Shown: positions 7,233 through 41,720 of the stretch, in pieces
Layout of the letters: every line of letters begins with the position of its first letter
How positions within the stretch are numbered: the first letter of the stretch is position 1
Sequence record: PQ384582.1
DNA: 44,482 nucleotides
Strand: one strand, 5' to 3'
Origin: Escherichia phage EcoPhCCP1
The notes under the pieces: model-generated
Told to the model about the DNA's origin: nothing
What the model saw: only the letters and a program-made list of their open reading frames with translations
Database searches by the model: none
Program-made: the position numbers and the translations under genes

Positions 7233-7261
7233 TCGGTACATCTTACATAGGAGAACGTGAA

Positions 7262-7432
7262 ATGACTATCAATGAAGTAGCTGAACGTATTGGGGTGACG
7301 CGCCAGACAATTAATAACTGGATTAAGAGTGGAAAGTTTCCTGATTGCAGCGTTAAAGTAATGGGTCGCCGGATGCCGGGGACATTTGACCGTAATAAAG
7401 TTGAAGCGTGGATTAAGGAGAACGTGAAATGA
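7262..7432 (+). CDS. HTH DNA-binding protein (AlpA/Xis/MerR-like)
   Basis: Internal ATG 7262 with GGAG SD; MTINEVAERIGVTRQTINNWIKSGKFP is a typical HTH. Confidence 0.6.
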   Translation: MTINEVAERIGVTRQTINNWIKSGKFPDCSVKVMGRRMPGTFDRNKVEAWIKENVK

Positions 7433-7641
7433 TTGGGTGTATGGGTTGTTACTTTGAAAACGGTAAAGTTAAATACTGGTTTAAGTTTGCGTCAGAAATT
7501 ACCGACAGCGGTTTCTACGCAGAAATATGTAAGCCTAATCATTTGTCGGAACCGACGCGCATTATTAAGATGCCAATCGAGGTGTTAAGTAAATGCCGTT
7601 TCTATACTTCGGAGCGTGCGTGGTTTGCCGGCGATAAATAA
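7429..7641 (+). CDS. hypothetical protein
   Basis: ORF track; ATGA overlap with upstream gene. Confidence 0.45.
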   Translation: MIGCMGCYFENGKVKYWFKFASEITDSGFYAEICKPNHLSEPTRIIKMPIEVLSKCRFYTSERAWFAGDK

Positions 7642-7709
7642 AAGAAACCCCAGCGCCAGAACGTCGGGGTCGAAGCACAAATCATCAAAGTAAGCACAAG
7701 GATTATACA

Positions 7710-7838
7710 ATGACGAAGTTAATAGTTCCACAGCTACGCCGCCAGAAACACGGCGCTGATTTCTTCGCACCGGTAAAGATGAACCGCGCAATGCGCCGTA
7801 TGCAGGAAGCCTTAGAACGTGCGGAGAAAAAGAAATGA
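7710..7838 (+). CDS. hypothetical protein (42 aa, below cutoff)
   Basis: Translated by hand: MTKLIVPQLRRQKHGADFFAPVKMNRAMRRMQEALERAEKKK; AAGGA SD; stop overlaps primase ATG. Confidence 0.4.
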   Translation: MTKLIVPQLRRQKHGADFFAPVKMNRAMRRMQEALERAEKKK

Positions 7839-10096: not shown

Positions 10097-10121
10097 GTAA
10101 AAAGAAAGGGGCGTTAAGCCC
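10097..10121 (-). terminator. rho-independent terminator (minus strand) at the end of the XRE gene
   Basis: GGGGC-GTTAA-GCCCC hairpin (10107-10121) followed on minus strand by TTTCTTTTTT. Confidence 0.5.
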
Positions 10122-10329
10122 CTTCACCGAACGCCAGCCACTTGGCGTCTACTTCCAGCACTTCTGCCAGTTTAAACAGCGTCGCCGGGCGGACATCCTG
10201 AGTTACACCGAGTGCCAGTTGGTTAATCGCGCCCTGGGAAACCCCAGCCAGAACAGCCAGACGGCGCTGGGAGATGCCGAGTTCTTTACGGCGTTGTTCT
10301 ACACGGATGCCTAGTTCAGATGGTTGCAT
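10114..10329 (-). CDS. XRE-family HTH transcriptional regulator (Cro/CI-like)
   Basis: LGISQRRLAVLAGVSQGAINQL is a classic XRE HTH; gene is antiparallel to the flanking replication genes. Confidence 0.75.
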   Translation of the reverse strand: MQPSELGIRVEQRRKELGISQRRLAVLAGVSQGAINQLALGVTQDVRPATLFKLAEVLEVDAKWLAFGEGA

Positions 10330-10393
10330 GTCAATTACTCCTTAGTCAGTTGATATGTGAATAGTACCATATTAATTATTTTAGGAAAGCCCA

Positions 10394-10423
10394 TTGACAT
10401 CATGAATAGTTAGCTATTATAGT
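10394..10423 (+). promoter_or_regulatory. sigma70-like promoter TTGACA-N18-TATAGT with AATAG-N4-CTATT dyad in the spacer
   Basis: Spacer TGAATAGTTAGCTATTATAGTT is identical to 13465-13486; back-to-back with the XRE promoter region. Confidence 0.55.
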
Positions 10424-10455
10424 TAGCACATACCAAACGAGAGGAGAGAAACAAA

Positions 10456-10632
10456 ATGGCTAAACGTAAAGATTATGATGCTAACTGGAAAGTGTGGTTT
10501 CCCAACGTCATCCTAGAAGGACGTGGGGATGTTGAAGGTATGATTACTCAGGCATTCCGTTTCTTACCCGAAAACATGCAGAAAGACATTCTTAAAGAAC
10601 TTAACAATATCGCCGAACAGGAGAACAAATAA
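10456..10632 (+). CDS. hypothetical protein (58 aa, below cutoff)
   Basis: Translated by hand: MAKRKDYDANWKVWFPNVILEGRGDVEGM...; GAGAGGAGAG SD; TAATG junction with next gene. Confidence 0.45.
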   Translation: MAKRKDYDANWKVWFPNVILEGRGDVEGMITQAFRFLPENMQKDILKELNNIAEQENK

Positions 10633-11159
10633 TGTTAGAGAAATTCTTAGTATTACTGGAACGTTTCGTAGTTGCGCATGAACTGATTGCTGCGAACAGT
10701 GTGAAACAACCGACTAATAAATCTGTAGGTGAATTGACCGTTGACGTCGCGGTAACGGGGGTAGAGACAGTTAAAAAAGAACTGGCTAAAGCACTTGAAG
10801 AAGTCGAGAAGGCGAAAGAAATCCCGGTTGAAGGTGAAGACGTCGTTGACACTAAACCGGCAGAAGATGAGAAGCCGAAACGCAAGCCTGGCAAATCAAA
10901 ACCAGCCCCTAAACCTGTAGAGGAACCAACACCGGAGCCGGAAGAAGAAGTCGATTACCAGTCTCTGCGTGACCAGATTCAGGCTATCGACGATGCGATT
11001 AACGAAGGTCCGAGCGATGCCGCGTGCGACGATTCCGATGAACTACTGGAAGAGTTCACCGGTAAGAAAATGAAGATTGCCGCGATTAAAGACGAAGACC
11101 TGGTTGAATATCTGGAACTCCTCACGGCAATCAAGAACAAGTATTTCGAAGAAGAATAA
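10632..11159 (+). CDS. acidic Pro/Glu/Lys-rich protein (hypothetical)
   Basis: ORF track; strongly acidic low-complexity central region (KPAPKPVEEPTPEPEEE). Confidence 0.5.
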   Translation: MLEKFLVLLERFVVAHELIAANSVKQPTNKSVGELTVDVAVTGVETVKKELAKALEEVEKAKEIPVEGEDVVDTKPAEDEKPKRKPGKSKPAPKPVEEPTPEPEEEVDYQSLRDQIQAIDDAINEGPSDAACDDSDELLEEFTGKKMKIAAIKDEDLVEYLELLTAIKNKYFEEE

Positions 11160-11172
11160 CTACTTAACTTAT

Positions 11173-11196
11173 GTTGCCCTCATACGTGAGGGCAAC
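11173..11196 (+). other. perfect 10-bp stem-loop GTTGCCCTCA-TACG-TGAGGGCAAC
   Basis: Read directly; no U-tract on either strand; lies just 5' of the SD (TGAGGGTCGG) of the next gene. Confidence 0.8.
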
Positions 11197-11214
11197 AAAC
11201 TGAGGGTCGGAATT

Positions 11215-11487
11215 ATGATTTACCAACTCTACCGAGCCGTAGACAGGCGGGATAGCACAGAGGCGTTATGGCTGTTGCGCGCGCCGTCCGGTGCGCACCA
11301 GATGGAAGAGATGGCGTACTTAGGCAAAGTACCACGGCCTAAAGATATAGGCCGTCACGTGTCGCAGATTAAGCGCACGACTTTCGCCAAGCCTGACTTT
11401 TATGTCTTCGAGTCGATGTATGGGTGGGCTATGCACTGCGAACATAAGACACGGCATTTAATTGACCAGTGGGAGAACAGGGTATGA
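11215..11487 (+). CDS. hypothetical protein
   Basis: Internal ATG 11215 with GAGGG SD, in frame with track ORF 11077..11487. Confidence 0.45.
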   Translation: MIYQLYRAVDRRDSTEALWLLRAPSGAHQMEEMAYLGKVPRPKDIGRHVSQIKRTTFAKPDFYVFESMYGWAMHCEHKTRHLIDQWENRV

Positions 11488-11981
11488 ATTGGCATGAAGT
11501 TTTTGACTACGACCCCGCTACAGGTAAATTATTTTGGAAAATAAGTCCGTCAAAATCTGTAAAAATAGGGCAAGAAGCTGGCAGTACGAGGGCGGACAAC
11601 GACGGGAGTGAATTTAAAATACTACGTTTTAACGGGACTACTAAACTTATCCACCACGTAGTTTGGGAGATGTTTAACGGGCCGATAGCGCCTGGGGAAG
11701 TAATTCGTCATAAAAATAAAGATAGAACTGATAACAGAATAGAAAATCTTATAAAAATGCGTCGGGGCAGTATCGCACACGGCACCAGCATACGGACGGA
11801 CAATACTTCAGGGGTTAAAGGTGTTGGGTTTCATAAACGCTATGGTAAGTGGGTCGCAAGAATTTATGTAGACGGCAGGCCGATTTATTTAGGGGCTTAC
11901 GATAAGTTAGAGAACGCGGCTAAGGCTCGCAGGCAAGCCGAGATTAAATACGGGTTTACAGTTAACGGAGCTGAGAAATGA
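11484..11981 (+). CDS. HNH homing endonuclease with AP2 DNA-binding domain
   Basis: HH...N...DNRIENL HNH core and AP2-like KGVGFHKRYGKWVARIYVDGRPIYLGAYDKLENAAKA. Confidence 0.75.
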   Translation: MNWHEVFDYDPATGKLFWKISPSKSVKIGQEAGSTRADNDGSEFKILRFNGTTKLIHHVVWEMFNGPIAPGEVIRHKNKDRTDNRIENLIKMRRGSIAHGTSIRTDNTSGVKGVGFHKRYGKWVARIYVDGRPIYLGAYDKLENAAKARRQAEIKYGFTVNGAEK

Positions 11982-13228
11982 TTCTAAAAGAACGCGGCGG
12001 CAATAATGACGTACACGCCTTACTGTCGCCGTCAGGTGCTAAAAAGTGGCTAAGCTGCGCCGCGTCACTGGCCTGTGAAAAAGATATTCCTAACACGTCA
12101 GGTAAAGCCGCGGTATTAGGCACAGCTATGCATACAATAGCCGAGGTCCATTTAAATCAGTACATCAAAGGCACTGCGCTGCCGTTAGAACGTGAAGTTG
12201 GCGCTTACGTGCTGGATGGGGGTAAAGGTCAGATTAAGGCGCTAATCAGCCCGATTAAAGGCGCGGTACTGATTACGGCGGATATGATTGAGCAGGTGCG
12301 TAAGTACACCGACTACTGCAAACCGATTATCGATGTAGCGACTTACGCCAAGCTCGAGATGCGCGTCAATCTTACTGAGGTATTGCATCCTGGCTACGAA
12401 GGTGTCGAGACGTTCGGAACTGCTGACCTTGTTGCCGTACAGGAACTGGCAAACACTGACGAGCACATGTTAATTATCGGCGACCTGAAAACTGGGCGGC
12501 ATCGTATCGAAGCGAAAGAAAACAAGCAGCTTATGCTCTATGCTCTCGGTGTTTATCGCCGACTCAAGAGACGTTATAACATCGCAGTTGTTCGTCTGGT
12601 CATCTTCCAGCCGTACGCTGGCGGGGCGTCGGAGTGGGACATCTCGGTTGAAGGTCTGGAACTGTTCGCTAAGTTCGCACAGAAACGTGCACTGTTGGCT
12701 CTTGATGCCTATTTCCGCGGTAAGAAGAACCTGAAAGCGTCGGACTTCAAGCCGTCTGTCGATGGTTGTCAGTGGTGCCGGTTCTCTGAACAGTGTGCTG
12801 CGCGTACAAAAACCGTTAACGCGGTACTGGCGGAAGAGCTGGAGGACGACTTTGCACTGGAACTGACGCCGGAGCAACTCGTAACTGAGTATGAGAAGCT
12901 GCCGTTGTTGCGCCAGCACATAGACAAGGTTGAGAAAGCGATGGCCGCCGCATTGCATTCAGGTAAGAAAGTGCCAGGGTACAAGCTGGTTGAAGGCCGT
13001 CCTGGTAATCGTGCGTGGAAAGACTCCGATGCGATTGAAGTGTCACACGGCGACATTCTCAAAAAAGAGGTATTGATGTCGCCCACGGAGGCAGCAAAAG
13101 TTCTTTCGGCGGACGAGATGGCAGCGCTTGAGCCGTTTATCACGCGTAAGCCGGGCGCACCATGTGTCGCATCGGCAGACGACAAGCGTCCTGAGTGGAA
13201 TCAGGTAACAGAGGAGGATTTAGAATGA
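11978..13228 (+). CDS. PD-(D/E)XK nuclease, Cas4/DUF2800-like
   Basis: N-terminal HALLSPSGAKKWLSCAAS, DLKTG motif and C-terminal Cys cluster (C.WCRF...C). Confidence 0.65.
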   Translation: MILKERGGNNDVHALLSPSGAKKWLSCAASLACEKDIPNTSGKAAVLGTAMHTIAEVHLNQYIKGTALPLEREVGAYVLDGGKGQIKALISPIKGAVLITADMIEQVRKYTDYCKPIIDVATYAKLEMRVNLTEVLHPGYEGVETFGTADLVAVQELANTDEHMLIIGDLKTGRHRIEAKENKQLMLYALGVYRRLKRRYNIAVVRLVIFQPYAGGASEWDISVEGLELFAKFAQKRALLALDAYFRGKKNLKASDFKPSVDGCQWCRFSEQCAARTKTVNAVLAEELEDDFALELTPEQLVTEYEKLPLLRQHIDKVEKAMAAALHSGKKVPGYKLVEGRPGNRAWKDSDAIEVSHGDILKKEVLMSPTEAAKVLSADEMAALEPFITRKPGAPCVASADDKRPEWNQVTEEDLE

Positions 13229-13461
13229 TTCGTAAAATGTTCAGAGTAATTGGCGGTTTTGTGGCGTTTTTAAGCTATCACTTTATGATGTTGCCGGTTT
13301 ATTCTTTGCTTTTTCCATTAATGGCTTATATTGCGGTTAAGTATAAAACTGTAGACCTGGAAGACTTAATGGAAGTTAATGAGATAAAGTTTGTTCAGAA
13401 TTTGGAGTGGCCTTTCGAATACGTACTGATAGTTGAGAAAATAACTGGCTGGAAGGGTTGA
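13225..13461 (+). CDS. small membrane protein
   Basis: Internal ATG 13225 with GGAGGA SD and ATGA overlap; two hydrophobic segments. Confidence 0.4.
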   Translation: MIRKMFRVIGGFVAFLSYHFMMLPVYSLLFPLMAYIAVKYKTVDLEDLMEVNEIKFVQNLEWPFEYVLIVEKITGWKG

Positions 13462-13486
13462 CACCTGAATAGTTAGCTATTATAGT
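13458..13486 (+). promoter_or_regulatory. sigma70-like promoter TTGACA-N17-TATAGT with AATAG-N4-CTATT dyad
   Basis: Consensus -35 at 13458-13463 and -10 at 13481-13486; spacer shared with the 10394 promoter. Confidence 0.6.
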
Positions 13487-13545
13487 TCTAATCACTGGCC
13501 GGGCAGCTTCCCGGAGTAAACGAAACTTAAAAGCGAGAAATCACG

Positions 13546-14175
13546 ATGGGCATTAAACTGAATCTGCGTAAAGTAAACACTGCTTGGGTTAATGTATTCG
13601 AACGTGCTGCCGACTCTGAGGACAAGAAAACCGGTAAACTGATTAAGGGTAAATATCAGGTTACTGTTCTTATGCAGCCCGACCACCCTCAAATCGACGC
13701 GCTTTACGACACAGCGCTAGAAGTTGTAACAGAGGCAATCGGGACCGCCGCCGCTGAAAAATGGATGAAGGCCAACTACGGCGAAGACCACCATGCAGAT
13801 AAATGCTGCGTCCGTGACCTGGCAATGCGCGACAACCCGATTGAGGATTTTGAAGAAGGTCTGTATTTCCGCGCTACTAACAACCGCCAACCGGTAATTA
13901 TGACCTCGGCTAAAGGCGAAAAACAAACCGAGCCTGATTTCAACATCGACGGGCAGGAAGTAGAAGGCGAGCAGGTATATAGCGGGTGCGTAGCAAACGT
14001 ATCTGTAGAGTTATGGTGGCACAAAGAATGGAAAAACCTGTGCGCCACCATCCTCGGCATCAAGTATGCTGGTGAAGGTAAACGCTTCGGCGGCTCCAGT
14101 GTAGTAGCGAGCACCGACGACCTGGAAGACGACGAAGAAGATGGAGCACCGCGCCGTGAACGCCGCCGTCGCTAA
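13546..14175 (+). CDS. ssDNA-binding protein (DUF2815-like)
   Basis: Sits between the DUF2800-like nuclease and the DNA polymerase; acidic C-terminal tail DDLEDDEEDG. Confidence 0.55.
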   Translation: MGIKLNLRKVNTAWVNVFERAADSEDKKTGKLIKGKYQVTVLMQPDHPQIDALYDTALEVVTEAIGTAAAEKWMKANYGEDHHADKCCVRDLAMRDNPIEDFEEGLYFRATNNRQPVIMTSAKGEKQTEPDFNIDGQEVEGEQVYSGCVANVSVELWWHKEWKNLCATILGIKYAGEGKRFGGSSVVASTDDLEDDEEDGAPRRERRRR

Positions 14176-14195
14176 TATCTGAATCAATTTAACTA

Positions 14196-14217
14196 AGGCC
14201 CTTCATTGGGCCTTTTT
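14196..14217 (+). terminator. terminator/attenuator hairpin between the SSB and polymerase genes
   Basis: AGGCCC-TTCATT-GGGCCT followed by TTTTT. Confidence 0.5.
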
Positions 14218-14234
14218 ACTAAGGGTCGAAAATA

Positions 14235-16436
14235 ATGAGTTACCTGTTCTTAGACTTTGAAACATTCTCCGAAGCTGATTTAAAGAAAGTCGGTTCCTAC
14301 GCTTACGCTGAACATCCAACTACCGAAGTGCTAATCTGTACCTATGCTTTTGACGACGAGCCTGTGCAGGTGTGGGATTGCACCGACGGCAGCGACATGC
14401 CTGGCGATTTGCACCGCGCGTTACGCCGTCTGGTTAAACCGAACAGCCGCATCAAGATGGTGTGGCACAACGGCTCAATGTTCGACCGCCTCATCATGAA
14501 ACACTGCTGGGGTTTTGATATTCCGGTAAGCAACACCATTGATACGATGATTTGGGCGTTCCGCCACGCGCTGCCGGGTTCACTTGATGCATTGTGCGAA
14601 GTGCTGGGTGTATCCGCAGATAATGCGAAAGATAAACGCGGCAAGGCGCTGATTCAGCGTTTCTCTAAACCCACTCCGAAGAACTACAAAATCCGCCGCT
14701 ACACCGCCGAGACGCACCCTGGCGAGTGGGCGCTGTTCATCAAGTACGCCGTGAGTGACATAACTGCGATGCGTGAAGTTTTCCATAAGCTACCGCGGTG
14801 GGGTAACTCTGAGTTCGAAGACCGTGTACTGGAACTGGACCAGTTAATCAATGACCGCGGGTTTAAGGTTGACGTTGCACTGGCGGAAGCCGCAATTGAA
14901 GCCGTGGAAAAACACAAAGCGCAGTTACAGGAAGAAGCCCAGCGCAAATACGGCGGCTCTCTTACTGGTAAAGACTTCCTGCCAATTCTACGCGAACTGG
15001 CTCCTGCGCACCGTATTCATAACGCACAGAAGTCTACGCTTAACGACCTGCTGGCGGACGATGATTTACCTGACGACGCCCGCGCGATTATAGAAATGCG
15101 CCTCGGGGCCGCATCCACCGCATCAACGAAATATAACCCGCTGTTGTTAGGCCGCTCTTCGGACGACCGCCGTCGAGGGTGTTTACAGTATGGCGGGGCA
15201 AAACGTACTCTGCGATGGGCGGGTAAAGGCTTCCAGCCGCAGAACCTGGCGCGCGGGTACTATCACGATGATGAACTGGATAAAGGCATTTCAGCGTTAC
15301 TTAAGGGCCGCGCGCACCGCCGTTTTGATGTCGCTAAATTAACGGCATCGACGGTGCGTAGCTGCATCATACCGGAAGCAGGACATAAGTTTGTTGTTGC
15401 CGATTATTCTAACGTCGAAGGTCGCGGTTTAGCGTGGCTGGCCGGTGAAGAAACCGCGCTCGATACGTTCCGCGCTGGCCTTGATATTTACTGCGTAACC
15501 GCGGGTAAGATGTTCGGCATGGACCCAGATGATATTAAGAAAAACTTCAAGGAAATCAGACAGATAGGCAAGGCTTGCGAACTGGGCCTCGGTTATGAGG
15601 GGGGTGTCGGAGCGTTCGTTACGTTCGCCAAAAACTTAGGCCTAGACCTTATTGAGATGGCAAAAACAATGGACGGGACTTTCCCCGACCACATCTGGGC
15701 TGCTACCGCACGTGGGTATGAGTGGGCGCGTATTCAGGAAGCCAAGCGACCGCCACATCCCGGTGAAAAGGATGACCGACCATCGTATATTCTTGATAAG
15801 AAAGTGTGGCGCACATGTGACGCTATCAAGCGTATGTGGCGTGAGTCTCACCCTGAAACAGTAGCGTTCTGGCGAGACCTTAAAGATGGAATTTTAGCCG
15901 CTGTTCGCAATCCTGGTCGTGAATTTTGGGCAGGAGCACACTTGCGCAAGAATGGTGAAAGGGCTATCCGCATATGGCGTACTGTTGAATTTGATTCGTC
16001 CGGTAGGAAGGTTCCTGGTTGGTGGTTGTGTATGGAGTTGCCGTCGGGTCGTATCCTCTCGTATCCGGGGATCGGCGTTAGCGTGACAAAGGAAACAGAC
16101 GAAGACGGACGGGTAAACACGAATGTGCGAATCAAGTACCAAGGCGAAAACCAGTTAACCCGCCAATGGACTACCCTGTACACACACGGTGGCAAAGCCT
16201 GCGAAAACATTGTCCAGGCGCTGTGCCGTGATTTACTCGCGTATGCGATGATTAATGTTGAGGGTGGCGGGTATCCAATCGTGCTTTCGGTACACGATGA
16301 ACTGGTATGTGAAACTCCAGACACCCCCGAGTATACGGTGGCTGAACTGGAAAAATTAATGTGTTCGCTGCCTGAGTGGGCCGAGGGGTTCCCTCTTGTA
16401 GCGGAAGGTCAGGAGTTAAAACGTTATGCTAAGTAA
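14235..16436 (+). CDS. DNA polymerase, family A, with 3'-5' exonuclease domain
   Basis: Exo motif LDFETFS; Pol A motif A VADYSNVEGR, motif B RQIGKACELGLGYEGG, motif C VHDE. Confidence 0.9.
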   Translation: MSYLFLDFETFSEADLKKVGSYAYAEHPTTEVLICTYAFDDEPVQVWDCTDGSDMPGDLHRALRRLVKPNSRIKMVWHNGSMFDRLIMKHCWGFDIPVSNTIDTMIWAFRHALPGSLDALCEVLGVSADNAKDKRGKALIQRFSKPTPKNYKIRRYTAETHPGEWALFIKYAVSDITAMREVFHKLPRWGNSEFEDRVLELDQLINDRGFKVDVALAEAAIEAVEKHKAQLQEEAQRKYGGSLTGKDFLPILRELAPAHRIHNAQKSTLNDLLADDDLPDDARAIIEMRLGAASTASTKYNPLLLGRSSDDRRRGCLQYGGAKRTLRWAGKGFQPQNLARGYYHDDELDKGISALLKGRAHRRFDVAKLTASTVRSCIIPEAGHKFVVADYSNVEGRGLAWLAGEETALDTFRAGLDIYCVTAGKMFGMDPDDIKKNFKEIRQIGKACELGLGYEGGVGAFVTFAKNLGLDLIEMAKTMDGTFPDHIWAATARGYEWARIQEAKRPPHPGEKDDRPSYILDKKVWRTCDAIKRMWRESHPETVAFWRDLKDGILAAVRNPGREFWAGAHLRKNGERAIRIWRTVEFDSSGRKVPGWWLCMELPSGRILSYPGIGVSVTKETDEDGRVNTNVRIKYQGENQLTRQWTTLYTHGGKACENIVQALCRDLLAYAMINVEGGGYPIVLSVHDELVCETPDTPEYTVAELEKLMCSLPEWAEGFPLVAEGQELKRYAK

Positions 16437-16557
16437 ACTGATTATCGCGGTACTGGCAGGATTTGCCGCCGGTGTCTACTGTCACGAGGGTCAATACGGC
16501 ATGATTGTCGCCGTGTTAGGCATGTTCATCGCAATTTATCTGTGGGTGCTGGAATGA
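16426..16557 (+). CDS. small membrane protein (43 aa, below cutoff)
   Basis: Translated by hand: MLSKLIIAVLAGFAAGVYCHEGQYGMIVAVLGMFIAIYLWVLE; ATGA overlap downstream. Confidence 0.35.
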   Translation: MLSKLIIAVLAGFAAGVYCHEGQYGMIVAVLGMFIAIYLWVLE

Positions 16558-16643
16558 AAATCTACTGGTTCTACGAAGAAGACTGTCGAATCTGTCCGCG
16601 CTGCGGGATTGAGCATACAAAACGAGAGTGGTGCGTATTATGA
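16554..16643 (+). CDS. small Cys-rich protein (29 aa, below cutoff)
   Basis: Translated by hand: MKIYWFYEEDCRICPRCGIEHTKREWCVL; ATGA overlaps on both sides. Confidence 0.3.
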   Translation: MKIYWFYEEDCRICPRCGIEHTKREWCVL

Positions 16644-16831
16644 AAGAAGAATGTTTTAGCAACACCAAAGCGTTAGTAGATATGCCGGAGTGGGAATTTA
16701 TCATGGTAATGGGCGATGGGTTCTTTAGCGATGCTTGCACCGGGTGTACGCACAAAGGTGTTTACTATTCAGAACACGACATCTATCAAGCGTACTTCCT
16801 GCGAAACCCAGATGCGGAGCCGTTGTTATGA
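16640..16831 (+). CDS. hypothetical protein
   Basis: Internal ATG 16640 in frame with track ORF 16628..16831; ATGA coupling. Confidence 0.4.
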   Translation: MKEECFSNTKALVDMPEWEFIMVMGDGFFSDACTGCTHKGVYYSEHDIYQAYFLRNPDAEPLL

Positions 16832-16980
16832 CAATGTTTGTATTTTGGACGATAGTAACCATGCTCGCACTGTTACTCGGCGCTGGAATAGCTGCGATGT
16901 TCTGTTATGGCCTGTTCTTTAAGTTTTTCGGTGTTGCCGTTCTCGGTGGAGCTTTCCTTACTTGGATTCTGCGGTCGTGA
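16828..16980 (+). CDS. small membrane protein
   Basis: ATG 16828 (MTMFVFWTIVTMLALLLGAGIAAMF...), two hydrophobic segments. Confidence 0.4.
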   Translation: MTMFVFWTIVTMLALLLGAGIAAMFCYGLFFKFFGVAVLGGAFLTWILRS

Positions 16981-17261
16981 CTAAAGAGGGCCGCGTACAG
17001 AAATACGCAAAAGAGCGATTCGAGGCCATTGGCGGCCTCGTTCGTAAACTGTCTTATGAGGGGCGTTCCGGCGCCCCTGACCTGCTGGTAATTCTCCCCG
17101 GGGGCATCGTCTGGTTCGTCGAGGTGAAGAAAGACGAAAACACGAAGCCAGACCCGCACCAGTTACGGGAACACGGGCGGATGCGTAAACGCGGTGCAAA
17201 TGTTTTTGTCGTTGGTTCGTTTAAACAGGTTGACGACCTAATAGCGAACTATTATAGTTAA
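16962..17261 (+). CDS. VRR-NUC domain nuclease
   Basis: PDLLVILPGG...VWFVEVKK matches the VRR-NUC (PD-(D/E)XK) pattern; non-ATG start (TTG 16962 or GTG 16977). Confidence 0.6.
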   Translation: MDSAVVTKEGRVQKYAKERFEAIGGLVRKLSYEGRSGAPDLLVILPGGIVWFVEVKKDENTKPDPHQLREHGRMRKRGANVFVVGSFKQVDDLIANYYS

Positions 17262-17291
17262 GCACACACCAACAATATAAGGAATTGAGAA

Positions 17292-17483
17292 ATGAAACAC
17301 GAATATGATCGCAAACCAGCACGTGACATCGTACCTGGCGACATGATTTTCAACGTTAAGACTCGCCGTCCTGTTGCCGTTGATACGGTGTTCGTCGAGT
17401 CGAACGGTAAACTGGTTATCGAAGATGTAACGGGAAACGTTACGGCGTTCGGGCGTAAAGAGTTAGTTCTGGTGCTGAAATGA
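17292..17483 (+). CDS. hypothetical protein
   Basis: ORF track; ATGA overlap with the methyltransferase start. Confidence 0.45.
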   Translation: MKHEYDRKPARDIVPGDMIFNVKTRRPVAVDTVFVESNGKLVIEDVTGNVTAFGRKELVLVLK

Positions 17484-18403
17484 ACTATTACAACGAATGG
17501 GATAAAGGCGCAGCCGCGTGGCTGCGCGAATTAATAAAACAGGGTCTCATACCTTTTGGAGTTGTAGATGAAAGAAGCATTACCGAAATTAGACCAGAAG
17601 ACCTTGACGGGTTCACCCAGTGTCATTTTTTCGCTGGTATCGGCGGCTGGCCTCTCGCGCTCAGACTTGCGGGAGTTTCGGAAGATACGCCTCTCTGGAC
17701 GGGAAGCCCGCCTTGCCAACCGTTTAGCGCGGCAGGAAAACAACTCGGACAGTTCGACCCGAGACACCTCGCGCCAGTCTTCCTCGACCTCATCAGCGAG
17801 TGCCGCCCTCCAGTCCTCTTTGGGGAACAGGTTGCGCCAGCAATTGCAAAATCGTGGATGTGCGATTTACAAACTCACCTGGAAGGAGAAGACTACGCCG
17901 TCGGGTTTGCCGTACTCCCAGCTTGTGGCGTCGGCGCACCGCATAAAAGAGAGCGACTCTTCTTTGGTGCGTACCAACTGGCCGACACCGACAGCGAACG
18001 ATTACAAAGGGAGCGGAGAGACAGTGATTCGCAAGGACGGGAAGGACAGAACATTCGACAGGCTGGACTACTCAACGGAGCAGGGACTGAAAGCGGCATG
18101 GGGGACGCCGACGGTTCAGAATTCGCGTCACGGCAGCTACAGCGAGGCGGAAACAAAAAGAGACCCGAACAATCTGCACAATCAATGCTACCTCGTGGTG
18201 GCAATCCGAATCGCAGCTTCTGGTCGGATGCTGACTGGCTCGGATGCCGTGACGGAAAATTTAGGCCAGTTGAACCCGGCACATTCCCGCTGGCTAATGG
18301 GATACCCGCCAGAGTGGGACGATTGCGCGGTTACGGCAATGCTATCGTCCCGCAAGTAGCTGCCGAATTTATAAAGGCGTTTATGGGGGCCATAAATGAG
18401 TAA
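17480..18403 (+). CDS. DNA (cytosine-5)-methyltransferase, apparently frameshifted
   Basis: Frame of 17480: motif I FAGIGG, IV PPCQPFS, VIII HKRERLFF, X GYGNAIVPQVA; frame of 17568: WPTPTANDYKGSG, WGTPT and LNPAHSRWLMGYPPEWDD. Confidence 0.7.
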   Translation: MNYYNEWDKGAAAWLRELIKQGLIPFGVVDERSITEIRPEDLDGFTQCHFFAGIGGWPLALRLAGVSEDTPLWTGSPPCQPFSAAGKQLGQFDPRHLAPVFLDLISECRPPVLFGEQVAPAIAKSWMCDLQTHLEGEDYAVGFAVLPACGVGAPHKRERLFFGAYQLADTDSERLQRERRDSDSQGREGQNIRQAGLLNGAGTESGMGDADGSEFASRQLQRGGNKKRPEQSAQSMLPRGGNPNRSFWSDADWLGCRDGKFRPVEPGTFPLANGIPARVGRLRGYGNAIVPQVAAEFIKAFMGAINE

Positions 18404-19820
18404 GTTTCAAAGGCGCGAGTACCAGAAGCTCATGACCTCGTTCATGTTGCAACACCATCGCTGCAACATATGGGCAAGCATGGGCGCTGGGAAGACTGGC
18501 AGCGTACTGTGGGCATTAAACCGACTGTTCCGCAACGGCCAACTTAATGATGACGACCGCGTGTTAATACTCGCCCCGCTGCGCGTTGCGTCCGGCACAT
18601 GGCCCGCAGAACAAGAGAAATGGCGATTCCCGTGTCTGAGTGTCGTAGATGCGACCGGTTCAGAGAAGCGCCGCATCGCGGCGCTGGAGTCGGACGCTAA
18701 CGTGGTGTGCACCAACTACGAAGTTATCGAGTGGCTGATTGACTACTATGGCAAAGACGACTGGCCTTTTACGGTCATCGTTGCCGATGAGAGCACGAAA
18801 CTGAAATCATTCCGCAGCCGTTCAGGTGGTAGTAAGAGGGCGAAGGCGCTCAGTAAGGTGGCATTTGGAAAGGTTAAGCGTTTTATTAACCTGACGGGAA
18901 CGCCGTCACCGAACGGCCTCAAAGACTTGTGGGGTCAGAACTGGTTTATCGACGCGGGCGAGCGACTCGGGTCTTCTTACACAGCATTCACCGACCGCTG
19001 GTTCAACTCGGTACAGAAAGGAAAATCGGCTATGGCGCGCGAGTATCACGCCCGCCCGGGTGCAGATACTGAGATTCACCAGAAGATGAAGGACATTAGT
19101 CTCACGATTGACGCTGCTGAGTGGTTTGGGTGTGAAGCCCCGATTATTGTACCGGTTGAAATCGACCTGCCGAAGAAAGCGCGTCAGGCTTACATCGATA
19201 TGGAGGAGAAGTTATTCGCGGAACTGGAGAGCGGAGAAGTTGAAGCGGCTAACGCGGCGGCGAAGACGTCGAAGTGTTTGCAGATTGCGTCTGGTGCCGT
19301 GTATGTGTCGGGGCCTGATGGCGAAGCAACGAAAGACTGGGAGAAGGTGCACGACACGAAACTGGATGCGCTTGAGTCCATTGTTGAGGAGTTGCAGGGT
19401 GCGCCATTACTGGTAGCCTATCAGTTCAAGCACGAACTGGAGCGCATCCTTAAGCGATTCCCGCAGGCGCAGGCGTTTGCCAAAGGTGCTAAGGGTAATA
19501 AGCAGATGGACGCGTGGAACCGCGGCGAGATAGAGATTTTGTGTGTACATCCTGCGTCAGCCGGGCATGGTTTGAATTTACAGGACGGCGGACACCATCT
19601 GGCGTTTATTTCGCAAGGCTGGAACCTTGAACACTATTTGCAGGTTGTTGAGCGTATAGGCCCAGTGCGCCAGAAGCAGGCCGGGCATGGGCGCCCTGTG
19701 TTCCTGTATCACATAGTCGCTAAAGACACGCTGGACGAGGTTGTTGCCGCGCGTACGGACGAGAAGAAATCGGTACAGGAAGAGTTGCTTAATTACATGA
19801 AGAGAAGGAGTAAGAAATGA
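18396..19820 (+). CDS. SNF2-family (DEXH-box) helicase
   Basis: Walker A GAGKTG, DEST box, LTGTPSPNGLKDLW (motif III) and C-terminal GHGLNLQ / QVVERIGPVRQ helicase motifs. Confidence 0.8.
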   Translation: MSKFQRREYQKLMTSFMLQHHRCNIWASMGAGKTGSVLWALNRLFRNGQLNDDDRVLILAPLRVASGTWPAEQEKWRFPCLSVVDATGSEKRRIAALESDANVVCTNYEVIEWLIDYYGKDDWPFTVIVADESTKLKSFRSRSGGSKRAKALSKVAFGKVKRFINLTGTPSPNGLKDLWGQNWFIDAGERLGSSYTAFTDRWFNSVQKGKSAMAREYHARPGADTEIHQKMKDISLTIDAAEWFGCEAPIIVPVEIDLPKKARQAYIDMEEKLFAELESGEVEAANAAAKTSKCLQIASGAVYVSGPDGEATKDWEKVHDTKLDALESIVEELQGAPLLVAYQFKHELERILKRFPQAQAFAKGAKGNKQMDAWNRGEIEILCVHPASAGHGLNLQDGGHHLAFISQGWNLEHYLQVVERIGPVRQKQAGHGRPVFLYHIVAKDTLDEVVAARTDEKKSVQEELLNYMKRRSKK

Positions 19821-20002
19821 AACTTAATGTTGGCGATGAAATATACAGCATACACTCATTCAATACTTTCACCATCGAGTACATATCAAAAGACGGTAAC
19901 AGCTTTGTTTTGGTAAGCTCGAACGGTAAATACGAAAAGTCACGATGCTACACGCTGTCGGACATAAAGCGCAGTTTCAAGAAAAGAGAAGGTAAGAAAT
20001 GA
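19817..20002 (+). CDS. hypothetical protein
   Basis: ORF track; ATGA coupling at both ends. Confidence 0.45.
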   Translation: MKLNVGDEIYSIHSFNTFTIEYISKDGNSFVLVSSNGKYEKSRCYTLSDIKRSFKKREGKK

Positions 20003-29193: not shown

Positions 29194-29300
29194 TCTTTAA
29201 TCCTTTGGTTAAGAGGTTACTGGTTAAAGGAAATGCGCCAGACGGGAACCACCCGCTTTTCGTGTGCGACACTAGGCGCAAAATTATTCTAACACACTAC

Positions 29301-29329
29301 TTGCACACCCCAATATAATAGGGTACTAT
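29301..29329 (+). promoter_or_regulatory. phage promoter family member TTGCAC-N17-TACTAT (plus strand) driving the moron island
   Basis: 32 bp (29301-29332) identical to 39188-39219. Confidence 0.6.
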
Positions 29330-29360
29330 TCACTTACACCAACAATGGAGGGGTTTTAAG

Positions 29361-29552
29361 ATGTCCAGTTTACCAATTTCCTTAATTCTGTTCGCACTGC
29401 TTGCTTATTTCGCACCTTTCCTGGTTGCGTACTTCCGTAATCATAAAGCGAAGTTAGCGATATTCATGGCTAACTTATTTCTTGGGTGGGTTCTGTTGCC
29501 GTGGGTATTCATTTTAATCTGGGCTTGTAACTCGAACGTGAAAGAGAAGTGA
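29361..29552 (+). CDS. small two-TM membrane protein, superinfection-immunity-like
   Basis: YFAPFLVAYFRNH...NLFLGWVLLPWVFILIWA resembles the Imm_superinfect pattern; GGAGGGG SD. Confidence 0.5.
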   Translation: MSSLPISLILFALLAYFAPFLVAYFRNHKAKLAIFMANLFLGWVLLPWVFILIWACNSNVKEK

Positions 29553-29590
29553 GCTACTATAGGACAAATCCTAAACACGAGGAAGTAAGC

Positions 29591-30721
29591 ATGGCCCGGA
29601 AGAAAATAACCGACGAACAGTTACAGGAAGAATTGAACGCCGGGGTTAAAACTATCGATATAGCCCGTAAATATGGCATCTCAGACCGCGTTATTCGTAT
29701 CCGTAAAGCGAAGCTGGCGAAGAAAGGCGTGGGTCATGGGCGTGACGTTAGCCACCTTGTGCCGGACGGCTACAAGATTAAAGGAACATCGTCACTTGTG
29801 GACGAGTTCGGCAACACTAAGTTGCAATGGGTTAAGACCGATACCGATGCCGAACGTCAGGTCGAATTGATGAAAGCCGTAATCGAGGGCATGAAGTCAG
29901 AGATTACTCCAGTTGCGCCTGTTAAAGCCGCCCGCACCAAACGCGACGACAAGCTGCTCAATCTTTACACGGTATCTGATTTCCATCTCGGTATGCTGGC
30001 CTGGGCTGACGAGAGCGGCGACGACTGGGATATGAAGATTGCGGAAGACCTGTTTTCTCGCTGGTTCGATGCGGCGTTTCAGAAAGCACCAGATGCGGGA
30101 ACCGGGGTTATTAACCTGCTGGGTGACTTTGCTCACTTCGATAGCCTGGACGCCGTTACACCTGAGTCGCGCCATGTGTTGGACGCCGATACTCGCTATC
30201 AGAAACTGGTTCGCTACATGATTCGTATGGTGCGCCGTGTTGTTGATATGGCGCTTGTTAAACATAAAACCGTTCGCTTGCTTATCGTGCAAGGGAACCA
30301 CGACGAAAGCGGAATGATTTGGTTGGCTGAGATGTTCAGTACGCTGTACGACAACGAGCCGCGTGTGTTCGTCGATACGTCGCCGGATGTGTACAAGATG
30401 GTGCGACACGGCAAAACGACGCTGTTCTTCACACATGGTCATAAATGCCGGTTTGAGGTGGTCGAACCAATTATGATATCTAAGTTCAGAAAAGCATTCG
30501 GGGAAAGCGAGTACAGCTACGCTCACGTAGGCCACCTGCATCACCAGAAAATTGTAGAAAGCCGTAACATGATTGTTGAGCAACACCGCACCTTAGCGGC
30601 TAAAGATGCCTACGCCTCTCGTGGCGGATGGATGTCAGGACGCAGTGCAAATGTAATTACTTATAGCGCCGAATACGGCGAGGTCGCACGTTTAACTATT
30701 TCACCGGAGATGCTGGGATGA
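29591..30721 (+). CDS. calcineurin-like metallophosphoesterase with N-terminal HTH
   Basis: Motifs SDFHLG, LLGDFAHFD, VQGNHDE, THGH, VGHLHH; ATG 29591 with GGAAG SD (track ORF starts at GTG 29549). Confidence 0.6.
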   Translation: MARKKITDEQLQEELNAGVKTIDIARKYGISDRVIRIRKAKLAKKGVGHGRDVSHLVPDGYKIKGTSSLVDEFGNTKLQWVKTDTDAERQVELMKAVIEGMKSEITPVAPVKAARTKRDDKLLNLYTVSDFHLGMLAWADESGDDWDMKIAEDLFSRWFDAAFQKAPDAGTGVINLLGDFAHFDSLDAVTPESRHVLDADTRYQKLVRYMIRMVRRVVDMALVKHKTVRLLIVQGNHDESGMIWLAEMFSTLYDNEPRVFVDTSPDVYKMVRHGKTTLFFTHGHKCRFEVVEPIMISKFRKAFGESEYSYAHVGHLHHQKIVESRNMIVEQHRTLAAKDAYASRGGWMSGRSANVITYSAEYGEVARLTISPEMLG

Positions 30722-31203
30722 AAGATATTGTAATTTTCGATTTAGATGGAACATTGGCAGATGGTATGCATCGTTTACACCTGCTGCCGAAAGATAACTA
30801 CAACGAAACATGGGCGTGGAAACCCTTTAACATGGCGTGCAAAGATGATGAACCAATTAGAGATAACATCGAACTGTGTAACGCCCTTAATCGTCGCTAC
30901 GCCGTTATTATTTTAACTGGTCGCAGTGATGATGCAGAAAAAGAAACCAGAATGTGGTTGCAGCGCCACCGCGTCGAATTTTATCAGTTAATCATGCGCA
31001 GCAAACACGACAACAGAAAAGACATCGTAATTAAAGAAGAGGTGTTACGCGCTATCGGGCTGGAAAGAATATTGTGCGCATTCGACGACTCTCCGGCGGT
31101 AATAAAGCATTTCCGCGGACTCGGTATAACCACTCACGCGGTTACTGAATACGACTGTAACGGGAATTCTACACACTTAAAATCACACGGGAGCGATAAA
31201 TAA
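30718..31203 (+). CDS. HAD-superfamily phosphatase / 5'-nucleotidase-like
   Basis: HAD motif I FDLDGTLAD at the N-terminus. Confidence 0.6.
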   Translation: MKDIVIFDLDGTLADGMHRLHLLPKDNYNETWAWKPFNMACKDDEPIRDNIELCNALNRRYAVIILTGRSDDAEKETRMWLQRHRVEFYQLIMRSKHDNRKDIVIKEEVLRAIGLERILCAFDDSPAVIKHFRGLGITTHAVTEYDCNGNSTHLKSHGSDK

Positions 31204-31772
31204 TGGCTAAGGTAATTATTCTTAATGGCCCGGCGGGTTGTGGGAAAGACACACTTGCTATGGTGCTGGTAGAAATGGGCTTTGCGAAGGGTGCTACCAG
31301 TTTCAAAAATCCAATGTTCAATATTGCTCTGGCAGCGTTAGGTCCGGATGCGTACCACGAGTTTCTCGACGGCTACGACGACCGGGCGCGGAAAGAAAAG
31401 CCAGAGGGTTTCCTTAATGGTTTGTCTCGTCGTCAGTTCATGATTGCCATTTCTGAGCAATTCATTAAACCGGTTCTCGGCGGCGATTATTTCGGTAAGT
31501 ATCTTGCTGAAAACTTGCCCGACGGCGATGACGTTTTTGTAGTGTCAGACGGTGGATTCGCCAGTGAAGTGTCCCCTATCGTCGCCGCAGGGCATGACGT
31601 AAAAATCGTTCGCTTGCGCAGAGACGGCTATACGTTTGACGGGGATAGTCGTGGTTACCTGTACGGTATTGATGGTGCGGTATGTCATGACGTTGTGGCC
31701 ATCCCAGGCGAGATTACATTAACAGCAGCTGCGATTGCTAATAGAATCCTGGGGATTTATCCAAATGCGTGA
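31203..31772 (+). CDS. P-loop kinase, dNMP-kinase-like
   Basis: Walker A NGPAGCGKDT (GKDT variant as in T4 gp1-type dNMP kinases). Confidence 0.55.
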   Translation: MAKVIILNGPAGCGKDTLAMVLVEMGFAKGATSFKNPMFNIALAALGPDAYHEFLDGYDDRARKEKPEGFLNGLSRRQFMIAISEQFIKPVLGGDYFGKYLAENLPDGDDVFVVSDGGFASEVSPIVAAGHDVKIVRLRRDGYTFDGDSRGYLYGIDGAVCHDVVAIPGEITLTAAAIANRILGIYPNA

Positions 31773-31946: not shown

Positions 31947-31976
31947 AAAAAGGCCCCGAAAGGGGCCTTAGTTTTA
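31947..31976. terminator. bidirectional rho-independent terminator
   Basis: AAAAAGGCCCC-GAAA-GGGGCCTT flanked by A-run and T-run. Confidence 0.75.
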
Positions 31977-38345: not shown

Positions 38346-38373
38346 GAATAAATTATTCCAACATGCAAGGCAA

Positions 38374-38869: not shown

Positions 38870-38883
38870 GTTTCTCCTTTCTC

Positions 38884-38913
38884 GATAAGTAAAGCCCCGC
38901 CATAAAGCGGGGC
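38884..38913 (-). terminator. terminator/attenuator hairpin (minus strand) just upstream of the spanin RBS
   Basis: GCCCCGC-UUUAUG-GCGGGGC followed by UUUACUUAUC on the minus-strand RNA. Confidence 0.45.
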
Positions 38914-38979
38914 GCTAGTCCTTATCATTTAAACATAGAAACGGCGTAATCTCAGTAAACCAGTTACTTTTTACACAAG

Positions 38980-39121
38980 CAATAGAGTATGGCCCTTCCG
39001 AACGCGTCAGCGTAACTACACTCGGGACTTACGTCCGGCTCCGTTACCTGCCGCGCCGCGGTCGCTTGTTCATACTTCACAAGCTCAGGTGGAGCTTAGC
39101 ACATTTTCAGTGAAAAGTCAA
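38980..39121. repeat. non-coding repeat element, copy 2 (paralog of 7011-7156)
   Basis: Direct alignment with copy 1; conserved ends and core, variable middle with a 2-nt indel. Confidence 0.85.
39093..39121 (-). promoter_or_regulatory. promoter-like module in repeat copy 2: TTGACT-N17(TGn)-TAAGCT (minus strand)
   Basis: -35 TTGACT (39121-39116), 17-nt spacer, TGcTAAGCT; same architecture as 7128-7156. Confidence 0.4.
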
Positions 39122-39134
39122 CTATTCGAATAGT
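39121..39134. promoter_or_regulatory. perfect 14-bp palindrome ACTATTCGAATAGT abutting the -35 of the repeat-copy-2 promoter
   Basis: Read directly; half-sites related to the AATAG/CTATT dyad found in other promoters. Confidence 0.6.
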
Positions 39135-39187
39135 TTATTCCAACATTTACAATTCGGCGGAATACCTGGAATAGGTAAATAAATTGT

Positions 39188-39216
39188 TTGCACACCCCAA
39201 TATAATAGGGTACTAT
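39188..39216 (+). promoter_or_regulatory. phage promoter family member TTGCAC-N17-TACTAT (plus strand)
   Basis: 32 bp identical to 29301-29332. Confidence 0.6.
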
Positions 39217-39265
39217 TCATCTCAGCATACAACATGTTTAACCCATTAAATCGGGAGTATCTAAA

Positions 39266-39391
39266 ATGAACTACGCACCTCTTAAAAATAAATGTCGAGC
39301 TGCGGTTATCCGTAAAGCGTGGAGAGACGCTCCTGACTCACGTATTAAAAAGGTGATGCTTGAGTGGGCCGAAAGACTCAGCTTAACATAA
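39266..39391 (+). CDS. small basic protein (41 aa, below cutoff), moron
   Basis: Translated by hand: MNYAPLKNKCRAAVIRKAWRDAPDSRIKKVMLEWAERLSLT; GGGAG SD; own promoter and terminator. Confidence 0.4.
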   Translation: MNYAPLKNKCRAAVIRKAWRDAPDSRIKKVMLEWAERLSLT

Positions 39392-39395
39392 AACT

Positions 39396-39420
39396 AAGGC
39401 CCCGTTACGGGGCCTTTTAT
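39396..39420. terminator. bidirectional rho-independent terminator
   Basis: AGGCCCC-GTTAC-GGGGCCT followed by TTTT. Confidence 0.7.
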
Positions 39421-40924: not shown

Positions 40925-41009
40925 ATACCCTCCTGTTTCGATATGACAATCATATCAGTCGGTAACGTATTGGCATAATCATTCGCATTTAAGGTTAAAA
41001 AGAGCTTGA

Positions 41010-41039
41010 TTAAATTCTACATTTGAATGTAGAATTTAA
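41010..41039. promoter_or_regulatory. 30-bp dyad TTAAATTCTACAT-TTGA-ATGTAGAATTTAA upstream of the KilA-N gene (candidate operator)
   Basis: Read directly: perfect 13-bp arms with a 4-nt centre, 28 bp before ATG 41067. Confidence 0.7.
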
Positions 41040-41066
41040 ACGTACACTTAAACAGGAGAAATACGC

Positions 41067-41720
41067 ATGAAACTGCAAACATTAGAGTTCCCTTATGGAG
41101 AAATCACTTTTGACCGTGAAAACTTTATTAACGTAAACGAGCTGGTTGACCAGATGAACCGTTGGCGTTTAGACAACGGCATGGGGACAAGAGAGCTTCG
41201 CCAGGTCATGGCAACGGATGGCTTCAAGATTTTCAAGGAGGAATGCGAAAAACAACTCGGAATCGAGAATGCCATAAGGGCGACGAAAGGCCGAAACGGT
41301 CGCACCTTTGCATGTCTCCATCTGGCAGTATATATTGCTGAGCAATACAGCGCCTATTTCCATTTCCTCGTTATCGACCGCTTTATCACACAACGGCAGG
41401 TAGAACTACGAAACATTGGCGCGGTGAGCTTTGTCGAGCTTAACGCTGCCGTTAGTCGAATGATTGAGCGCACGGAGGGAAGAATTGGCCACAGTGGACA
41501 CTTCATACAGGTGGCTAAAGCGGTAAAGGAATCCGTAGATATCCGCGACGTAACGGGTTTCGATACATGGGACTCTCAGGATGCGAAGACCAATCAGTTG
41601 CGAAGTGACATCCAGAAAGCTCTGGTGACACTTCTTGACATGGAGGCCGTTAATACATGGGGTGAACTGAAAGAGGCGATACCTCGGGTTGTGCGTAAAT
41701 GTGCGGCTAATATACGTTAA
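41067..41720 (+). CDS. KilA-N domain protein (moron)
   Basis: GRNGRTFACLHLAVYIAEQYSAYFHFLVIDRF resembles the KilA-N/APSES core; opposite strand to the flanking structural genes. Confidence 0.55.
   Translation: MKLQTLEFPYGEITFDRENFINVNELVDQMNRWRLDNGMGTRELRQVMATDGFKIFKEECEKQLGIENAIRATKGRNGRTFACLHLAVYIAEQYSAYFHFLVIDRFITQRQVELRNIGAVSFVELNAAVSRMIERTEGRIGHSGHFIQVAKAVKESVDIRDVTGFDTWDSQDAKTNQLRSDIQKALVTLLDMEAVNTWGELKEAIPRVVRKCAANIR

Follow-up and report, generated by a model that had tools for sequence, protein, structure and literature searches.

The window analysed here is the whole 44,482-nt (44.5-kb) sequence of Escherichia phage EcoPhCCP1 (PQ384582.1), a near-complete Kagunavirus genome (subfamily Guernseyvirinae) that is collinear, at ~86-90% nucleotide identity, with many phages, among them Escherichia phages UTEC10, K1G and Golestan. 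Small early, lysis and packaging genes form a leftward block that runs from 6804 down to 113 and resumes at the window end, and a rightward replication block occupies 7172-20002. The structural genes form leftward blocks (29193-20165, 38869-31974 and 44482-39420), with short rightward islands among them at 29361-31772, 39266-39391 and 41067-41720. Every convergent strand-block junction in the window carries a member of one bidirectional terminator family, AAAGGCCCC-N4-GGGGCCTT flanked by T/A runs (at 14188, 20139, 31948, 39389 and 41718). The small-terminase gene contains an exact 77-bp tandem duplication (111-187 = 188-264) that frameshifts its 3′ end; with one copy removed, TerS matches UTEC10 to the last residue and its stop overlaps the terL start across the window ends. 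An artefact of k=77 assembly, in a contig that was circularised and rotated, very likely accounts for the duplication.

The first rightward island encodes a superinfection-immunity protein (29361-29549, Pfam Imm_superinfect), a metallophosphoesterase and kinases, and lies downstream of a predicted promoter at 29301-29332 (+) composed of a -35 element TTGCAC (29301-29306), a 17-bp spacer and a -10 element TACTAT (29324-29329). The initial annotation reported that this 32-mer, TTGCACACCCCAATATAATAGGGTACTATTCA, recurs identically at 39188, and the second copy is indeed exact (39188-39219, +). A third copy, placed by that annotation at 6826-6858, has the two mismatches and the reverse-strand orientation described, its correct coordinates being 6827-6858 (-). 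The diverged copy noted at 5454-5482 was also found, as 5451-5482 (-) with the sequence TTGCACACTAAGATAGAATAGGCTACTATTCA, which has 6/32 mismatches and keeps TTGCAC-N17-TACTATTCA exactly. The 32-mer had a chance expectation of 0.00 (100 shuffles). The bare hexamer pattern with up to two mismatches occurred eight times where 3.2 were expected and is not significant alone, so only the four exact copies were counted. All four are intergenic, and a Shine-Dalgarno sequence and a start codon follow each on the matching strand within 28-50 nt: GGAGG and ATG at 29361, GGGAG and ATG at 39266, GAGGAG and ATG at 6795-6793 (the ORF list starts the same ORF at GTG 6804), and GAGGAGAG and ATG at 5423. A fifth copy of TACTATTCA, at 10358-10373 (-) before a 71-aa ORF, had been missed.

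We term these promoters A type. The copy at 39188 would serve a 41-aa ORF (39266-39391) that ends at the bidirectional terminator 39389-39420, the copy at 6827-6858 heads the leftward block of small early genes, and the copy at 5451-5482 precedes a 42-aa ORF at 5423. The predicted promoter of the 71-aa gene, which encodes a helix-turn-helix (HTH) protein, spans 10358-10389 (-) and has a weak -35 (CTTTCC/TTTCCT) and a -10 TACTAT at 10361-10366. TTGCAC-N17-TACTAT matches sigma-70 at 7/12 positions, with TTG and TA...T kept. The left spacer is unlike between A copies (ACCCCAATAT vs ACTAAGATAG) and drifts among relatives. In UTEC10 the counterparts of the 29301 and 39188 copies read TTGCAGgcccc and TTGCGGacacc and thus differ in the -35-proximal spacer; the perfect identity is specific to the EcoPhCCP1 genome, and because the UTEC10 copies differ we ascribe it to probable paralogy or recent exchange. 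One A sub-family and the A promoters of Jerseyvirus conserve a sequence CCAAYAT to the left of the core (29309-29316, 39196-39203 and 6843-6850), which is absent from the 5451 copy.

Where four members had been proposed, repeat finding and motif searches gave at least eight, in two geometries. The second geometry, B type, is near-consensus sigma-70 (10-11/12 matches) and is represented by three predicted promoters on the + strand: TTGACA-N18-TATAGT at 10394-10423 (11/12 matches), divergent from the HTH gene and heading the replication block; TTGACA-N17-TATAGT at 13458-13486 (11/12 matches), upstream of a 209-aa ORF at 13546 and the DNA polymerase; and TTGACG-N17-TATAGT at 17230-17258, upstream of 17292 and the helicase block. 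Both types keep their hexamers 16-18 bp apart, the sigma-70 range, and 8/8 sites are intergenic and face a downstream gene with a ribosome-binding site. The promoter character claimed for the A copies is likewise borne out by their 17-bp spacing, layout, intergenic place and orientation, and from these features we infer promoter activity and the corresponding transcription starts; the sites are very probably promoters.

The only element beyond TTG and TA...T that is common to the A and B types is a dyad, AATAG-N4-CTATT. It occurs in seven exact copies where 0.03 are expected, making it the most frequent 5+5 palindrome in the genome, and 7/7 exact copies are intergenic, inside promoters and oriented toward genes. 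When extended it covers ~18 bp, (A/T)(T/G)AATAG-N4-CTATT(C/A)(A/T). In the A promoters it lies at 29317-29330 (AATAGGGTACTATT), 39204-39217, 6829-6842 and 5452-5467 (GAATAGGCTACTATTC, 6-bp arms), and in the B promoters at 10405-10418, 13468-13481 and 17239-17254 (TAATAGCGAACTATTA). The HTH-gene promoter carries an imperfect form at 10360-10373 (-) (AATAGTACCATATT, one mismatch, conserved as such). In the A type the dyad sits over the -10 hexamer, at about -19 to -6, with its right arm overlapping the -10; in B promoters it occupies the spacer (about -25 to -12), and the -10 hexamer begins with its final base. Between the types the 5-4-5 spacing stays constant and the register to the -35 and -10 shifts by 6 bp, and an element present in two registers, as the sole extra one shared, is hard to explain by polymerase contacts alone.

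Two further occurrences fall outside this set. A promoter TTGACT-N17-TATATT at 2655-2688 (-), directly after a terminator (2707-2752) and conserved in SETP7, has only a one-mismatch dyad, over its -35, and a CCCTATTATAT half that resembles the A core. Some relatives carry an extra exact dyad, AATAGGTTACTATT, that is absent from the window (5396-5409 in L001; ~14.6 kb in L008, L014, L015, L020, L023, L031 and L034); it has no obvious -35/-10 and is located after two direct repeats GGTGTAACAGGT and before a hairpin.

To follow the dyad across relatives, 38 Kagunavirus and 13 Jerseyvirus loci were fetched around the HTH gene, and orthologous promoters were aligned on BLAST anchors, not on the motif, with 26-46 loci per site. 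The mean column entropy was 0.036 bits in the left arm and 0.016 bits in the right arm, compared with 0.43 bits in the central 4 bp, 0.40 bits in the remaining spacer, 0.18 bits in the -35 hexamer and 0.2-0.3 bits in the flanks. The initial annotation had described the whole spacer as conserved; the constrained part is the 14-bp dyad overlapping the -10, and the spacer drifts. The same pattern was seen at single promoters: the arms had an entropy of 0.000 bits at 6827-6858 (orthologues in 26 Kagunavirus loci), they were conserved at 5451-5482 beside a left spacer varying at 0.55 bits (27 loci), and at 17230-17258 they reached 0.03-0.06 bits around a centre of 0.98 bits (33 Kagunavirus and 13 Jerseyvirus loci). 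The HTH-gene promoter at 10358 was conserved in 38 Kagunavirus loci, and the dyad at 29317-29330 was exact at the same position in 20/20 relatives (the fetched loci L057-L075 and L077, upstream of the tail-chaperone gene). Jerseyvirus has the form TAATAG-N4-CTATTA, and Serratia phage Smarc3 carries the dyad in its B-type replication promoters, not beside its HTH gene. Cornellvirus FSL SP-031, SenTO17 and Klebsiella phage VLCpiS11a lack it and their homologous promoters remain; in Cornellvirus, TTGCAC-N17-TATAGT stands next to the HTH gene. As these Cornellvirus promoters persist, the dyad seems dispensable for promoter function.

These data bear on the simplest alternative, that the sites are plain sigma-70 promoters with no dedicated regulator and that the palindrome is a by-product of promoter duplication and of a -10-like sequence readable on two strands (TATTAT/TACTAT/TATAAT). 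Both strands of the arms do contain -10-like hexamers, paralogy of the copies is clear from their 32-bp identity and common 5′ UTR motifs (such as AAACGAGAGGAG), and the Cornellvirus promoters do without the dyad altogether; moreover, some of the right arm's conservation reflects promoter function, since this arm coincides in part with -10-like sequence (TACTAT, TATTAT). Against this, the left arm of B promoters is less variable than the -35 although it falls entirely within the spacer, a region that sigma-70 does not contact base-specifically; the 5-4-5 spacing stays fixed although the register moves by 6 bp; and the central 4 bp drift freely in orthologues in which both arms are fixed. We therefore regard plain promoters as an unlikely account of the sites. 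A role as nucleic-acid structure was also considered and rejected: the dyad hairpin reaches only -1.8 to -3.7 kcal/mol with z-scores unremarkable for 3/4 sequences, and an Rfam search of the sites gave no match, and with so little hairpin energy and no Rfam match such a role is unlikely. Fixed arms, a free centre, two registers and dispensability instead point to a site for a dimeric protein laid over host-type promoters, and the dyad is probably a protein operator. The suggestion that a dedicated factor or coordinated regulation is involved thus gains ground, as the constraint beyond the hexamers points to an extra factor that may control early, replication and moron genes jointly.

The motif has been listed before, as PHIRE-detected 'phage promoters', in the genome papers of Golestan (PMC7203180), fBC-Eco01 (PMC9825357; OM272052.1) and SGP-C (PMC8790156). 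Supplementary Table S4 of the Golestan paper gives seven sites, including TAATAGGGTACTATTCATTA, TAATAGGATACTATTCACTT, GAATAGGCTACTATTCATTT and TAATATGGTACTATTCACAT, and lists the HTH-gene promoter site as 'before ORF48' (PMC7203180). In the fBC-Eco01 paper the sites number seven and have the consensus tgAATAGTa-ccTATTat-T, and OM272052.1 annotates them as promoters (PMC9825357); the SGP-C motif is TAATAGTACCCTATTATGTT (PMC8790156). The EcoPhCCP1 motif matches these published 20-mers and consensus at orthologous positions. A search for the motif in related phages, which the initial annotation had proposed, placed the 39-mer around 29301 at 434 places in 208 records, all of them Escherichia, Salmonella, Raoultella, Klebsiella or Shigella phages of the same group. 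The repeat is real and statistically solid, though ordinary, and as a motif it had been described before. The PHIRE reports list only repeat-detected 20-mers, and as far as we found, the PHIRE genome papers make no mention of two geometries, of symmetry in the dyad, of how conservation is distributed or of a link to the HTH protein. What is added here is a reinterpretation: a 14-bp operator-like dyad common to two host-type architectures and probably read by a 434-Cro-like protein.

The fBC-Eco01 paper ascribes the sites to a phage RNA polymerase (PMC9825357), in keeping with the PHIRE label 'phage-specific promoter'. Promoters of T7/SP6-type single-subunit polymerases do resemble the sites in forming multiple near-identical copies of ~20-30 bp before genes. 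They differ in that the sites here come with no polymerase gene and have -35/-10 hexamers 17 bp apart and dyad symmetry, so that we do not count them as members of that class. No RNA polymerase or sigma factor is annotated in the collinear relatives UTEC10, SETP7 and fBC-Eco01, the window ORFs above 650 aa are the helicase-primase, DNA polymerase, tailspike, tail protein and tape measure, and PHIRE detects repeats, not polymerase specificity. The published attribution is thus not supported by the gene content of the relatives, and we hold a phage-encoded polymerase to be highly improbable. The term 'phage-specific', used also in the initial annotation, does not apply in the sense of a non-host polymerase, given sigma-70-like hexamers and no polymerase or sigma factor in the collinear relatives. 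Reading TTGCAC as a T4 MotA-type or sigma-54-type element was rejected as well: no fitting second element was seen, and the Jerseyvirus -35 varies (TTGTGT, TTGACG, TTGGCA).

Two of the A promoters stand before variable genes. In lambdoid and HK97-like phages, moron cassettes consist of a promoter, a gene and a terminator inserted between conserved genes. Both the 39188 cassette and the 29361-31772 island have this make-up, with a promoter, cargo and a terminator, and vary between conserved genes. The 39188 promoter with its cargo is a presence/absence insertion bounded by the bidirectional terminator; L103, L116 and all Jerseyvirus loci carry a terminator instead, and in other Kagunavirus relatives the same promoter precedes different cargo. 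The 29361-31772 island, with its superinfection-immunity gene, ends at the terminator 31948-31976 and is absent from Cornellvirus, SenTO17 and the Serratia relatives (L003, L004, L005). Unlike lambdoid and HK97-like morons, those of EcoPhCCP1 have promoters that share the operator of the phage's own early and replication promoters, and for this reason they appear to be wired into the phage programme and not expressed autonomously from a prophage.

This mobility raises the alternative that the near-identical 32-mers serve mainly as short homology patches for the movement of moron cassettes, with promoter activity secondary. The 39188 copy travels with variable cargo and is absent, as is that cargo, from some relatives, UTEC10 has a further copy at 40825 with different genes downstream, and the 39-mer recurs at its 434 places in the 208 phage records; but the copies preceding early and replication core genes lie away from cassette borders, and the orientation always fits the downstream gene. 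As the main function of the repeat, homology patches seem improbable to us, and because a cassette needs a promoter anyway, this explanation complements that of operator-bearing promoters and does not replace it.

The 29301 site seems, from its sequence, to be bidirectional. An alignment upstream of the tail-assembly-chaperone gene, comprising 17 distinct relatives and the SETP7 context, suggested an opposite-strand promoter at 29315-29342 (-) that uses the same dyad, with TTGGTG (complement of 29337-29342), a 16-bp spacer and TATTAT (complement of 29315-29320); its Jerseyvirus counterpart is TTGACG-N17-TATTAA. A second opposite-strand candidate at 29301 is TTGGGG-N16-TAGAAT. Taking the spacer CCCCAA as an opposite-strand -35 (TTGGGG) is plausible only here (TAGAAT, 16 bp) and not at 39188 or 6827, and was discarded for the family. 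The opposite strand faces a conserved int-alpA-like leader and the tail operon, and since the site is apparently two-way, the operator set may not be confined to early genes.

The leader, which matches Rfam int-alpA RNA with 36.6 bits (cut-off 35.8), lies at 29218-29282 (-), back to back with the 29301 promoter and 25 nt upstream of the tail-assembly-chaperone gene. Relatives with protein identities as low as 43% have the element in the same position (28-33 bits). Its inner hairpin shows compensatory changes between Kagunavirus and Jerseyvirus (GTGT/ACAC vs CGGT/ACCG). The outer stem with its U-rich run is terminator-like, and the element may be a late-operon leader or attenuator.

Control elements of other kinds were also noticed in the structural region. 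At 38870-39121 (-) a conserved promoter-like TTGACT-N17-TAAGCT (TAGACT-N17-TACGCT in Jerseyvirus) has downstream of it a conserved leader, ~150-200 nt long, in which some pairs covary, and the first gene of the 38869 structural operon has a terminator hairpin directly upstream. An ~80% identical copy of the region lies at 6925-7157 (-), upstream of the A promoter at 6858. The region looks like a late-operon control region, possibly one for antitermination. A second palindrome, GAATA-N3-TATTC, occurs upstream of the late-type promoter (39128-39140) and of the scaffold gene (38346-38358). Cornellvirus FSL SP-031 and SenTO17 have three occurrences of the motif in their corresponding late region, and it may serve the whole subfamily as a late-activator site. 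The palindrome is adjoined by a perfect 16-bp palindrome, AACTATTCGAATAGTT, at 39121-39136. The amidase-like gene of the third rightward island (41067-41720, PHROG 6095) has a different promoter, TTGATT-N18-TAGAAT, within 40996-41066. The spacer of this promoter is an inverted repeat with 11-bp arms, AAATTCTACAT-TTGA-ATGTAGAATTT, and the island thus appears to have a separate operator.

The candidate binder of the dyad is the 71-aa XRE/Cro-type HTH protein encoded at 10114-10329 (-) (Pfam HTH_3 PF01381, 47.2 bits, cut-off 23). It belongs to PHROG transcriptional regulator/repressor families and relatives' annotations call it repressor/DicA. Among solved proteins it is closest to phage 434 Cro, likewise of 71 aa (E 5.4e-7, residues 6-68 vs 4-64), which makes it an almost full-length relative. 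Upstream of 10329, the divergent region holds the imperfect dyad of the gene's own putative promoter and the exact dyad at 10405-10418, a layout that is typical of autoregulation. The arrangement is like that of 434 Cro/cI in several respects: the sites lie across core promoter elements and, in the divergent region, beside the regulator gene, and a 14-bp dyad with the outer 5 bp conserved and the central 4 bp free has its parallel in phage Huey, a distant match in which the protein in the Cro position is identical to 434 Cro and the immunity region has 14-bp operators of 5-N4-5 layout, such as ACAAGAAAGTTTGT. It is unlike 434 in its half-site, AATAG here and ACAAG there, which differ at positions 2-3, and in that binding here is a candidate interaction only. 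EcoPhCCP1 also lacks the three tandem operators, the cI partner, the integrase and the lysogeny module, and its sites lie over at least eight promoters of a virulent-type genome, whereas those of 434 form one immunity region. In the collinear relatives no integrase or second XRE repressor is annotated; the window adds only an HTH_17 protein.

The recognition helices allow a closer comparison. The first glutamine is common to 434 Cro (VKQQSIQ) and the 71-aa protein (VSQGAIN) and the next residue differs; this difference alongside that at operator positions 2-3, judged by the 434 complexes, is suggestive only. Within the group, the Kagunavirus helix (SQGAINQ) differs from that of Jerseyvirus (SQSLITH) and the operator core is unchanged between them; indeed, Kagunavirus, Jerseyvirus and Smarc3 share the dyad core despite their recognition-helix differences. 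Cornellvirus, SenTO17 and VLCpiS11a keep an HTH homologue that is 40-43% identical, and no replacement operator was found beside the gene in these three phages. When all window ORFs were profiled against four relatives, no candidate with clean protein-dyad co-occurrence emerged. Weighing homology and layout, we put the chances that the 71-aa protein binds the dyad at about even.

The dyad could instead be the operator of another protein, either a host factor or the excisionase/AlpA-like HTH_17 protein encoded at 7172-7432 (+). This second HTH protein (Pfam HTH_17, E 4e-9) heads the rightward operon and occurs in the two genera that have both promoter types, Kagunavirus and Jerseyvirus; Smarc3, which carries the dyad, gave no detectable homologue, and for that reason the HTH_17 protein is the weaker candidate. 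HTH_17/Xis-type proteins usually bind direct or irregular repeats, unlike the 14-bp dyad, and it is the XRE protein that has the Cro-type size, the homology and the adjacent dyads. An operator for a protein other than the 71-aa regulator is, in our judgement, fairly unlikely.

From the geometry and conservation of the sites and the homology of the regulator, we infer that the dyad is bound, that the effect is repression, and which protein binds. The 32-mers would be host sigma-70-type promoters, part of a set of at least eight that would serve the small early and replication genes, the gene for the regulator itself and the two moron islands. Each embeds the 14-bp dyad; a dimeric phage HTH protein bound there would block RNA polymerase, and all promoters of the set, including the regulator's own, would be turned down together. 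Taken as a whole, this reading of host-type promoters with a dyad operator for a dimeric phage HTH protein, likeliest the 71-aa 434-Cro-like one, is slightly favoured. A literature search on Guernseyvirinae found no transcription-start mapping or binding study and one RNA-seq study, at gene level. In these data, from K1B4 (to 120 min, with a 30-min latent period), the superinfection-immunity and DNA polymerase genes were classed as 'late', which does not fit a simple early shut-off, in a design that makes interpretation hard.

Since the promoter-operator arrangement is a standard one, the value of the finding is practical, not conceptual. Kagunavirus and Jerseyvirus phages are among the most commonly isolated candidates for therapy and biocontrol of E. 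coli and Salmonella and are also small engineering chassis, for which a correct promoter and operator map would indicate sites for payload genes and their timing; such a map also sets right the published view that the sites belong to a phage RNA polymerase. For the biology of the group, we raise tentatively that most transcription in a virulent-type siphovirus family may be governed by one Cro-like protein and one 14-bp operator, present at eight or more promoters, with morons wired in by the same cassette. It is conceivable, at a similarly speculative level, that a single repressor acts from three operator registers, namely over the -10, inside the spacer, and at the core of the back-to-back pair at 29301 that faces the tail operon. 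For Jerseyvirus SGP-C, an episomal 'lysogen-like' carrier state with superinfection immunity has been claimed (PMC8790156). If true, a genome-wide single-repressor regulon could be the early-to-late switch of these phages and could underlie such a carrier state, and if one small repressor silences all early promoters, this would bear on the debated 'strictly lytic' status of the group.
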